From: a virus
Lineage: Monodnaviria; Loebvirae; Hofneiviricota; Faserviricetes; Tubulavirales; Inoviridae
Reading direction: 5' to 3' (one strand)
Length of the DNA stretch: 8,186 nt
IMG/VR virus record: IMGVR_UViG_2537561932_000001
Shown here one piece after another: positions 5,966 to 7,709 of this stretch. Numbering within the stretch: position 1 is the stretch's first letter; each line of letters begins with the position of its first letter. Both the position numbers and the translations under genes were made by a program. Below the pieces are notes generated by a model. The model had not been told where the DNA came from. It did no database searches and saw only the letters and a program-made list of their open reading frames with translations.

Positions 5966-7162
5966 TTAAAATGGAACTGAACGATTATAGAATTTACCTG
6001 CAATTACCTGCCGATAAACATCCGGTATTGAAAATCTAATCTTCTCATCCTGTATATCCTCATGTCTGACAATAGCAGTAAAGACCGCCTCGTAATCATT
6101 ACCGAGAAGATGAAATAGCTTTGCAACAGATTTAGAGCACTGCTTACGTAACCAGTGAACATTATGTTCCAGTGCATTAATTGCCTTTTTTTCGTCCGCT
6201 AAATCAGGACGATAAGGATTAAACTTGCGTGGTTTAGCTGGATTGATTTGTGCTGCATAATCACACAATCCCGTAAAATAACCGGCAATATCAAGCAGTA
6301 CATCAACAGGAACCCCTTTAAGCTCGACCTCAGAACGATTCCACGTACCACTGACTTTTTGTTCAAGCGCTTTATTATAGATACGCCAGTAAACACGCGA
6401 TTGCCGGGAACCAAACGTGTACATCTCCTGCTTTAATACTGCGCGACCATCCCATTTACAGGAGTTCGAAAAACCCGGACGCGGTCCCTTACCACTATAA
6501 AACGCGCCAGAGCGATGATCGCGAACAGCAGCGTCACACGTAAAAACACCATCGAAATCATCAACAGCCAAATCAATACGCTTAAGTGTCGTAATATTGA
6601 GATGTTTCAACCATTTGAATACATCCTGAGGCTCAGTGCCACTAAATACATGAGCACATCCCAGACCGGAAATCTGTATATATACCGTGTTATTGTTTCC
6701 ACCCCAGAACACAAAGCCATGTAAATTATTACCGCCATCGTCAGAAAATAATGGCGCAGAACAGCGATAATTAAAGCCACCACGATCCCGCTCCGGTCCC
6801 ATACTCAAACCAAAAGCACTGGATAACCAGATTTTAAGACGATGCAAATACGCAGCCTGAACAGCCTGATTATATTGTTCAATATGCTGTTCAATAAACG
6901 CTCTATCACCAGAAATGCCGCTACAAATTTTATCTGACTCCGCATCATCAGGAACCCAGCATCGAGTCTCAGGATCAACCACATCACGAAAGAAGGCATC
7001 ACGACCGGGCAGAAAATCACGCAGACGCGGCATGGAACCATACTTACGCCAGAACTGAATAGCGCCGTCGAAAGTCTCAAGATTCTTCAGCTCACTCATG
7101 GGGAAAGTGAATGCAAGATGGTCTATGAAGACGTGACGTATGGTTTCCTGAACCGGCTTCAT
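5966..7162 (-). CDS. Rolling-circle replication initiation protein (gene II position), 398 aa
   Basis: First and largest gene of the operon. Start at ATG 7162 preceded by AGGAGA about 10 nt upstream and overlapping the upstream ORF stop (TAATG). Tyr-rich segment [17 protein letters not shown] is a candidate catalytic motif. Family assignment is unverified. Confidence 0.7.
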
Positions 7163-7359
7163 TAGCAAACAGTCTCCTGATAACCGACCCATGAACCAGA
7201 AGGCAGTGCAACAGATACCAGAACGAAGTCATCCCCGATTGTTTCTAAGCATGCAATGACCAGCTCATTAAACGAGCTGAAAAAATCCCATTCACCATCA
7301 ATGCAGGCATTAACGCCATAATCAGGAATGTAATCGTAGTAAACAATCTCGTGAGACAT
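7162..7359 (-). CDS. Hypothetical small acidic protein, 65 aa, translationally coupled to Rep
   Basis: [68 protein letters not shown]. Its stop overlaps the Rep ATG (TAATG). Only a weak RBS (GGTG). Lies directly downstream of the predicted Rep promoter. Confidence 0.45.
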
Positions 7360-7496
7360 GTTTGCACCGCAATATATTTACCGCATGCGCGCATCATAAT
7401 CACATTTAACACGTGTTGTAAATACGCATGCGCTATGCGGGTGTAAAAAAAATGGAATAATCACCTTCTATTGAAAGGACATAGAGGTAAATTTTG
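7360..7496. promoter_or_regulatory. Divergent control region with palindromic operator candidates
   Basis: Perfect palindromes ATGCGCGCAT (7386..7395) and AACACGTGTT (7408..7417), and CGCATGCG (7425..7432). Candidate plus-strand extended -10 TGGAATAAT (7453..7461) for the regulator gene. RBS GAGG at 7485..7488. Confidence 0.45.
7393..7422 (-). promoter_or_regulatory. Candidate sigma70 promoter for the Rep operon
   Basis: Minus strand: -35 TTTACA (7422..7417), 18-nt spacer, -10 TATGAT (7398..7393). The spacer contains the perfect palindrome AACACGTGTT (7408..7417). Confidence 0.35.
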
Positions 7497-7709
7497 ATGA
7501 AAAAAGAAACAAAGCGCGGAGACACAACCGTAAGGATTAACGAAAACAGAAAACTGGAGCTAAAACGAAGAGTGCTGGAAATCGGTAATAAAACAGGTGA
7601 GCTACTAAAACCATCAGAGATAGTAAACCACTTAATAGACAACTACTTAGATGATGCGGTGAAAGATCTAATAAGCAAAGAAGAACTTAAGAAAAAAAAG
7701 GCAATGTGA
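7497..7709 (+). CDS. Putative ribbon-helix-helix transcriptional regulator (phage repressor candidate), 70 aa
   Basis: Divergent from the Rep operon, as repressors are in other filamentous phages. RBS GAGG 8 nt before ATG 7497 (the track starts at TTG 7494). The pattern TTVRINE, then NRKLELKRRVLEIG, then a GNKTGE turn, then LLKPSEIVNHLIDNYL is compatible with strand-helix-helix. Lysine-rich tail. Confidence 0.5.
   Translation: MKKETKRGDTTVRINENRKLELKRRVLEIGNKTGELLKPSEIVNHLIDNYLDDAVKDLISKEELKKKKAM

Follow-up and report, generated by a model that had tools for sequence, protein, structure and literature searches.

A dif-integrated filamentous prophage of Escherichia coli with an RstA-type replication cassette shared among unrelated inovirus backbones

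The IMG/VR virus record IMGVR_UViG_2537561932_000001 (Inoviridae; 8,186 nucleotides (nt), referred to below at its full length as the window) represents a filamentous prophage, complete at about 8.3 kb, at the dif site of Escherichia coli. Very probably, this prophage was integrated by XerCD in the manner of CTXphi and carries a self-contained replication and immunity cassette, which, as one unit, has passed horizontally between unrelated inovirus backbones. The comparisons described below established the family assignments of the genes and the boundaries of the cassette; the cassette occurs on three backbones, and the backbone of the window occurs with three types of cassette. A first-pass annotation, made from the letters of the window, had proposed a mosaic of an Ff-type structural and export module and a foreign replication and control module, a proposal now confirmed by sibling prophages, by sharp breakpoints and by the assignment of the initiator (RstA-type, Rep_trans) and of the repressor (RstR family).

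Boundaries of the exchanged segment

Three sibling prophages located at dif in other E. coli (L002, L003 and L004) match the window with 93-98% identity at positions 1-5598 and with 86% identity at positions 7860-8186, and nothing in them aligns to the window between 5598 and 7860. In this slot, L003 and L004 carry an initiator with 80-85% identity to If1 ORF320, a single-stranded DNA-binding protein (SSB) with 55% identity to M13 gV and a divergent helix-turn-helix (HTH) repressor similar to RstR; the SSBs of the siblings match Phage_DNA_bind (PF02303). The slot of L002, and that of the upstream copy in L004, is occupied by a 660-amino-acid (aa) Phage_GPA endonuclease, small open reading frames (ORFs) and a DUF2726 or TolA-like protein. 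L003 and L004 contain tandem arrays of prophages with differing cassettes.

The reverse situation was encountered in strain AST240 (L057), which carries window positions 5617-7823 at 95% nucleotide identity; here the prophage, again at dif, has a Zot/DUF2523 backbone. Apart from a 69%-identical stretch near the 3' end of pIV, the backbone DNA of L057 shows no other similarity to the window; its secretin is 44% identical to that of the window, and its attP is near-identical. The combination of the cassette with the Zot/DUF2523 backbone was found in 15 genomes and the combination present in the window in 12, and the Zot/DUF2523 backbone was also found with a gII/SSB cassette (H175). A related prophage in E. 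coli 2012C-4221 (L058, 1588-9726), with a Rep of 62.5% identity and a Zot/DUF2523 backbone, is located between sanA and yeiS, not at dif; an IS110 element lies beside its Rep end and an origin-like hairpin at the opposite end.

The third backbone is that of If1. The 8359-bp contig NZ_JAXCEI010000036.1 (L009) shows 94.5% DNA identity to If1 from the gVII ATG through pIV, its structural genes show 93-98% amino-acid identity to those of If1, and the DNA breakpoint lies exactly at the gVII ATG. In place of the If1 replication region it holds counterparts of the 65-aa ORF, Rep and the gene V-position protein of the window (62%, 55% and 47% identity, respectively), together with a divergent small ORF and the hairpin described below. 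The ends of this contig split gIII, and the genome looks complete and circular; it was deposited within an assembly of Actinomadura monticuli, in which it is presumably a contaminant.

The left edge of the cassette thus corresponds to the gV/gVII boundary in three independent backbones. In the window, this left recombination junction is confined to positions 5599-5617, between the stop codon of the gene V-position gene and the start of pVII: homology to the backbones of L002-L004 stops at 5598, and homology to the L057 cassette begins at 5617. The right junction zone covers positions 7821-7859, where the identity to the L057 cassette stops at 7823, the 3' edge of a hairpin, and the identity to the backbones of L002-L004 restarts at 7860. 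The span initially proposed for the foreign module, 5966-7709, is accurate from Rep to the regulator, but the exchanged unit is wider, extending from 5599/5617 to 7823/7859 and including the gene V-position gene as well as some 115-150 non-coding nt past the regulator. Base composition agrees with the mosaic: the guanine plus cytosine (GC) fraction of the cassette is 0.42, whereas pIV and the C-terminal half of pI have 0.55-0.59.

It might be argued that there is no mosaic and that the element is a vertically diverged relative of Ff whose gII, gV and control region drifted past recognition. The gene order is that of Ff throughout, the backbone proteins themselves are just 25-32% identical to those of Ff, and Carr et al. 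pointed out that the motifs of Phage_CRI and Rep_trans are arranged alike and that the two may have a common fold (PMC4797284). However, Rep aligns over its full length to CTXphi RstA (33%) and matches no gII, backbones of 93-98% identity hold true homologues of gII and gV in the same slot with sharp breakpoints, and the cassette is present at 95% identity on an unrelated backbone. This explanation is refuted by the sibling loci, in which the backbone is constant, and by L057, in which the cassette is constant, and is regarded as extremely improbable.

Replication and control genes of the cassette

The initiator Rep (398 aa; 5966-7162, minus strand) is of the RstA-type Rep_trans kind and matches Rep_trans (PF02486) over residues 202-368 with 77.3 bits (cut-off 29.6), the value for CTXphi RstA being 68.3 bits. 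Among deposited phages, the best matches were the RstA proteins of CTXphi and pre-CTX (33% identity, 95% coverage, E 2e-51), and direct comparison with CTXphi RstA yielded 33% identity over 380 aa (E 6.5e-60). Nearer relatives (43-48%) are widespread among prophages of Salmonella, Proteus, Xenorhabdus, Photorhabdus, Providencia, Morganella and Yersinia enterocolitica. Rep also matches the solved Rep_trans structure RepSTK1 (PDB 4cij). Its motif R260-I-Y262-N-K264-A-L-E267 aligns with the catalytic residues R189/Y191/K193/E196 of RepDE (PMC4797284) and with R177, Y179, K181 and Q184 of RepSTK1; R260, Y262 and K264 were invariant among 20 homologues. Rep_trans proteins are described as being without the HUH motif (PMC4797284).

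Similarity to M13-type proteins was judged by BLASTP against the proteins of M13, If1, IKe and CTXphi and by Pfam. Regarding the gII family, Rep yielded no match to Phage_CRI (PF05144) or G2P_X_C (PF05155) at E values up to 0.1 and no BLASTP match to gII of M13 or IKe. The Pfam controls behaved as follows: IKe gII and If1 ORF320 were recovered as Phage_CRI/G2P_X_C, M13 gV as Phage_DNA_bind and RstB as CTX_RstB. Judged by its sequence, Rep is a Rep_trans initiator outside the M13 gII family. Orthology of Rep and of the gene V-position protein with M13 gII and gV, which would speak against a mosaic, found no support in Pfam, BLASTP or hhalign, and the first-pass annotation was right in regarding the four cassette proteins (Rep, the regulator, the 65-aa ORF and the gene V-position protein) as unlike M13, since none of them shows BLASTP similarity to any M13 protein.

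The divergent regulator (70 aa; 7497-7709, plus strand) is an RstR-family repressor by homology and by divergent synteny upstream of the rstA counterpart: its residues 6-61 are 68% identical to the product of the rstR gene of pre-CTX KR063268, GQ466608 and others, which occupies the equivalent position. The classical HTH_3 allele of RstR is unrelated to it. The AlphaFold2 (AF2) model of the monomer (predicted local distance difference test (pLDDT) 88) consists of an extended N-terminus followed by two helices; a Foldseek search with this model returned nothing below E = 1, and a profile search returned ParG at a weak E value of 0.23. The regulator is a putative ribbon-helix-helix protein.

The premise that Ff phages carry no divergent repressor, from which lysogeny competence of the module had been argued, appears shaky, because If1 has a homologue of the regulator with 46% identity and the gII-type cassettes of the siblings carry divergent HTH repressors. 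The If1 homologue (L007, NC_001954, 5143-5292, minus strand) is an intact, unannotated 63-aa ORF within what is labelled the 'major intergenic region'. Between this regulator homologue and the If1 Rep gene lies ORF348, with matches to the IS605 OrfB/TnpB transposase families.

Between the regulator and the 65-aa ORF lies the divergent control region (7360-7493), an analogue of ig-2. It contains a leftward promoter-like site at 7422-7393 (score 10/12) and two CGCATGCGC palindromes at 7382-7390 and 7425-7433, 43 bp apart and on either side of the promoter-like site. The CGCATGCGC palindromes are candidate operators.

The 65-aa ORF (7162-7359, minus strand) is coupled to the translation of Rep via a TAATG overlap. 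Homologues immediately upstream of an RstA-type Rep were found in 27 enterobacterial and Vibrio loci; BLASTP revealed no homologue among the annotated CTXphi proteins, and the family profile matched nothing in PDB or Pfam. The gene at the gene V/rstB position (5621-5956, minus strand) encodes a 111-aa orphan (phrog_14411, unknown function), for which a search of 5.8 billion proteins returned no more than seven clusters. It yielded no Pfam match, including to Phage_DNA_bind (PF02303) and CTX_RstB (PF07459), and the hhalign probability was 0.2% versus gV, 0.7% versus RstB and below 1% versus a 117-aa family of Vibrio, a 109-aa family of Xenorhabdus and the 141-aa protein of L002. The AF2 model, calculated from a seven-sequence alignment, had a pLDDT of 34 and was unusable. 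In these searches, neither the gene V-position protein nor the 65-aa ORF matched a known family.

Beyond the regulator, positions 7765-7823 (minus strand; fold energy z -3.35) contain two hairpins, 7769-7786 and 7795-7818, which form the candidate plus-strand origin, ori(+). Hairpin 7795-7818 is kept in 17 RstA-type loci including Vibrio, in several of which it lies just beyond the regulator. In the loci L034 and L037, the stem reads ACCCACGT...ACGTGGGT instead of ACCCCCGT...ACGGGGGT, with pairing kept; these two variants were obtained with a regular-expression search, which missed the copy in the window itself, and BLAST matches were preferred otherwise. The loop of the hairpin on the viral strand is CTTGTAAC (CTTG/TAAC). 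In CTXphi, a 167-bp ori(+) adjoins rstR, and the nick made by RstA falls between G and T of the apical loop in a hairpin (PMC4439123). Since the layout is that of the CTXphi ori(+) beside rstR, hairpin 7795-7818 is taken as the putative nick site of Rep; in the CTXphi record MF155889, the published ori(+) was not located for direct alignment.

Integration at dif and the route of exchange

All 8,186 bases of the window are 100% identical to positions 1701170-1709355 of the chromosome of the enterotoxigenic strain E. coli E24377A (NC_009801.1), and the same identity was found in five further complete genomes. An assembly artefact is ruled out by these six complete genomes. The locus (L001 in E24377A) is flanked by the yde fimbrial genes on one side and by hipBA on the other, the genes bordering this dif site. 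The left dif site (L001 5986-6013) matches E. coli dif in 27 of 28 positions. Window position 1 corresponds to L001 6001, and the XerC-arm end of the site lies at window positions 1-13 (minus strand), the remainder of the 28-bp site being located just beyond the window, where the junction sequences were read. The right end of the prophage is a hybrid dif site. The end base of the XerC arm is T (phage type) in the left site and C (chromosomal type) in the right hybrid site; because these bases differ, a crossover on the XerC side would fit the junctions.

Directly beyond the right end of the window, at L001 14190-14283, two inverted dif-like sites surround a GC-rich hairpin. As single-stranded viral DNA, this attP is predicted to form one long hairpin with a bulge of 6 nt at its centre (-37.5 kcal/mol, z -9.6), and is thus to be classed by sequence with the folded double-dif attP of CTXphi. 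Both features of CTX-type Xer integration, a location at chromosomal dif and an inverted pair of dif-like sites folding into a hairpin attP, were found, and the dif-integrating character that had been suspected is borne out. Integration would proceed by XerCD in the CTXphi manner, presumably with a XerC single-strand exchange.

The backbone segment next to attP (7860-8186, plus strand) is 86% identical in all siblings and contains at 8012-8185 (plus strand) an ORF for a 57-aa single-pass membrane protein adjoining attP; the unrelated backbone of L057 has a counterpart with 29% identity at this position. In E24377A, the prophage is bordered by truncated genes (L001 3621-5782 and 14373-14633), those for the fimbrial usher and chaperone at one end and hipA at the opposite end, which suggests deletions adjoining dif. 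Between the tandem prophages of L004, at 3120-3220, a second and different inverted pair of dif-like sites surrounds a hairpin, and resembles an attP belonging to a further Xer-dependent element.

The replication and control module had been proposed to be competent for lysogeny, and it might accordingly be held that it brought both integration and repression to a non-integrating phage of the Ff type. The cassette indeed holds a divergent RstR-family repressor, and its Rep belongs to the family of the dif-integrating CTXphi. The attP, however, lies beyond the right end of the window and outside the cassette, next to the segment 7860-8186 kept in the siblings. Siblings with that attP-proximal segment carry If1/M13-like gII and gV cassettes, the near-identical attP of L057 is found with a different backbone, and the cassette type is also present on the If1-type circular genome L009 (a dif-like site was not looked for there). 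Since attP belongs to a backbone common to siblings with Ff/If1-type replication genes, the replication and control module does not bring the competence for integration. The cassette supplies the repressor and immunity part, whereas integration resides in the conserved backbone, and the proposal that the module confers lysogeny as a whole is unlikely.

The viral strand runs from attP through the small membrane ORF, the two hairpins, the antisense repressor gene and the control region to the 65-aa ORF, followed by Rep, the 111-aa gene and the morphogenesis genes, which is the order found in CTXphi. The reading favoured here is that of a dif-integrated prophage with a horizontally exchanged replication and immunity cassette, and it entails the following steps. 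Rep would nick the candidate ori(+) via Tyr262, the ribbon-helix-helix-like 70-aa repressor would act at the promoter/operator region and so supply the repressor and immunity part of lysogeny from the cassette, and the 111-aa protein in the gene V/rstB slot may bind single-stranded DNA. Exchange would occur partly via rolling-circle read-through between different prophages in tandem at dif, leaving a junction at the origin, and the left junction would stem from a separate recombination at the gV/gVII boundary. On its right side, the match to L057 stops at the 3' edge of the hairpin, which is where read-through between tandem origins predicts a junction. For CTXphi, the formation of hybrids from tandem arrays by origin-to-origin rolling-circle synthesis is documented (cited in PMC7307601).

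Several points weigh against this reading. Read-through accounts for the right junction at most, and the direction of exchange (i.e., which partner was replaced) cannot be told. Replication, repression and virion production of this prophage are predicted from sequence, and binding of single-stranded DNA by the 111-aa protein is presumed from its position alone. The chromosome of E24377A contains a single copy of the prophage, and a tandem partner is thought to be necessary for the generation of single-stranded DNA by a CTX-type prophage. Furthermore, the 2.7-kb E. coli plasmid p16F5M1D103 (L059, NZ_AP019859.1), the initiator of which is Rep_1, not Rep_trans, matches window positions 7730-7860 at its positions 1852-1979 (130 nt, both hairpins, 85% identity). 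As the hairpins are common to a Rep_1 plasmid, they may serve in minus-strand initiation or in termination and not as the site nicked by RstA; the shared 130 nt may thus reflect another role of the element or, alternatively, a phage origin captured by the plasmid, i.e. a natural phagemid.

Under the former option, 7730-7860 would be a minus-strand origin recognised by the host or the terminator of the regulator gene, would not be specific to Rep and would travel with the cassette by proximity. Besides the occurrence of the same 130 nt in a plasmid with an unrelated initiator, it is in line with this option that hairpin 7795-7818 and a T-rich stretch score as a plus-strand intrinsic terminator directly downstream of the regulator. 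Conversely, the hairpin was not found in sibling cassettes with other Rep types, is kept alongside RstA-type Reps from Vibrio to Enterobacterales, and occupies the position of the CTXphi ori(+), with CTTG/TAAC here corresponding to the G/T nick in the CTXphi loop (PMC4439123). This option is considered rather doubtful, and the assignment as candidate ori(+) is retained. A more far-reaching extension of the favoured reading is put forward only tentatively: E. coli dif might harbour a combinatorial pool of inoviruses, in which the cassette, from the ori(+) hairpin to gV/gVII, is shuffled among at least three unrelated backbones by read-through in tandem arrays, the 65-aa and 111-aa proteins would be RstA-type accessory factors, and the origin would have been captured by the Rep_1 plasmid as a natural phagemid.

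Backbone genes and relation to known phages

All phage genes except the divergent 70-aa ORF are on the minus strand and follow the Ff order, with the 65-aa ORF, Rep and the 111-aa gene preceding those for the 33-aa pVII, the 52-aa pIX, pVIII, pIII, pVI, pI and pIV. The pIV secretin (812-2032, minus strand) matches Pfam Secretin (E 1.8e-25) and is 25% identical to M13 gIV (E 2e-15); its nearest relatives are from Dulem virus 52/53 (47%) and from prophages of Scandinavium and Xenorhabdus (46-55%). The pI assembly ATPase of the Zot family (2042-3298, minus strand; Pfam Zot, E 1.2e-9) shows 31-32% identity by BLASTP to gI of If1 and M13 over residues 1-219 (E 1e-28). Compared with IKe by BLASTP, pI and pIV are each 26% identical. 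The attachment protein pIII (3668-4996, minus strand) contains an Ff-type N1 domain (Pfam Phage_Coat_A, residues 3-72, E 2.4e-10), and its N-terminus is 27-29% identical to N1 of If1 and M13 g3p (E 5e-10 and 2e-8).

The remaining assignments were made largely by position. The pVI-position minor coat protein (3306-3665, minus strand; phrog_27651) was assigned by position and size, with a weak match to If1 gVI (30%, E 0.05), the pVIII-position major coat protein (5052-5327, minus strand; phrog_17608, a RefSeq coding sequence) by position, and the 52-aa pIX-position ORF (5348-5506, minus strand) by position alone. The 33-aa pVII-position ORF (5509-5610, minus strand), whose first codons form the left edge of the cassette, equals M13 pVII in length and yielded no BLASTP match to proteins of M13, If1, IKe or CTXphi. 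In Smith-Waterman comparisons, shuffled sequences reached the real score in 56 of 2000 cases versus M13 pVII and in 3 of 1000 cases versus If1 pVII. The resemblance of pVII is marginal, and the assignment leans mainly on size and position. The similarity to M13 noted by eye in the first-pass annotation consequently holds for pI, pIV and the pIII N1 domain, which are distant (25-32%), but not clearly for pVII, and the description as M13-like was overstated.

A further breakpoint may be present inside pI, the N-terminal half of which has a GC fraction of 0.52 and is Ff/If1-like; the C-terminal half of pI and pIV (for GC see above) are closest to prophages with a Zot-type pI. The sequence support for this breakpoint consists of only two weak tblastn matches (E ~6e-4). 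Downstream of pIV, positions 12-590 comprise two tandem non-coding units of about 305 bp, which belong to the conserved backbone. They consist of the direct repeat families D1-D3 (84-88% identity), with a palindromic hairpin of about 31 nt in each unit, and additional partial matches to the unit are present in L002. These repeats could represent packaging-signal or minus-strand origin repeats. A Megablast search of the whole window against the phage collection and an Rfam scan at the gathering threshold both yielded no match.

The GPA-type cassette of L004 (E. coli UTME-13) encodes at 2291-2656 (plus strand) a secreted-looking 121-aa protein matching the C-terminal domain of TolA (PF06519, E 2.4e-13). 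As this domain of TolA is bound by the N1 domain of Ff-type pIII, the TolA-like protein could be a decoy which blocks superinfection.

Among known systems, the cassette resembles RS2 of CTXphi and pre-CTX in its origin hairpins, divergent repressor, control region, Rep_trans initiator and small downstream protein (rstR - ig-2 - rstA - rstB, with ori(+) beyond rstR), and the element shares with CTXphi the integration at dif via a folded double-dif attP, no integrase being encoded by either. It differs from CTXphi in the extra 65-aa ORF coupled to Rep, in a downstream protein which is not RstB, in a regulator unlike the classical HTH_3 RstR, and in a backbone with a secretin gene of its own and with pI and pIII N1 of the Ff type. 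With Ff (M13/f1/fd) and If1 it has in common the gene order, the pI ATPase domain, pIV and the pIII N1 domain, whereas the identity is just 25-32%, Rep and the gene V slot are of other families, and the window prophage is located at dif; the If1 variant L009 carries a cassette of the window type.

UPphi prophages are likewise filamentous, dif-integrated in E. coli and relatives, arranged in tandem arrays and equipped with Ff-class structural genes. Shapiro and Putonti (2020) reported IKe-like structural genes and Ypfphi-like genes II and V for UPphi and invoked modular recombination (PMC7307601). In contrast to the window, the structural genes of UPphi are near those of IKe/I2-2, and its replication genes are the gII/gV common to Ypfphi rather than an RstA-type cassette; as pI of the window is only 26% identical to IKe gI, the element is not a UPphi virus and not a member of the genus Lineavirus. 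Ypfphi/CUS-1, compared here by published description only, is enterobacterial and dif-integrated, with a CTXphi-like inverted XerC/XerD pair, tandem arrays and a divergent repressor (PMC4266046). The latter is described as an RstR homologue (PMC4266046) and the replication genes as gII/gV-like (PMC7307601), and Ypfphi/CUS-1 thereby resembles the cassettes of L003/L004 rather than that of the window.

Discordant replication, structural and regulatory modules are also known from the mosaic vibriophages VFJphi (PMC3731265) and VAIphi (PMC7412436) and were attributed by the authors to recombination between co-resident phages. These mosaics differ from the window in host and backbones, the exchange described here being one at near-identity within one species, with breakpoints located to about 20-40 nt. 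Modular exchange in dif-integrated inoviruses is therefore already documented for Vibrio phages and UPphi, and the window adds a further example.

This example shows module exchange between filamentous phages in an unusually clean natural form: in a single species, initiators of three unrelated families are found on near-identical backbones and a near-identical cassette on unrelated ones, with breakpoints located to within tens of bases. Integration, through attP, is a module separable from that of replication and immunity, and phages of the Ff/If1 class can carry RstA-type cassettes. Two conserved small proteins of unassigned function accompany RstA-type initiators, including those of Vibrio phages akin to the cholera-toxin phage.

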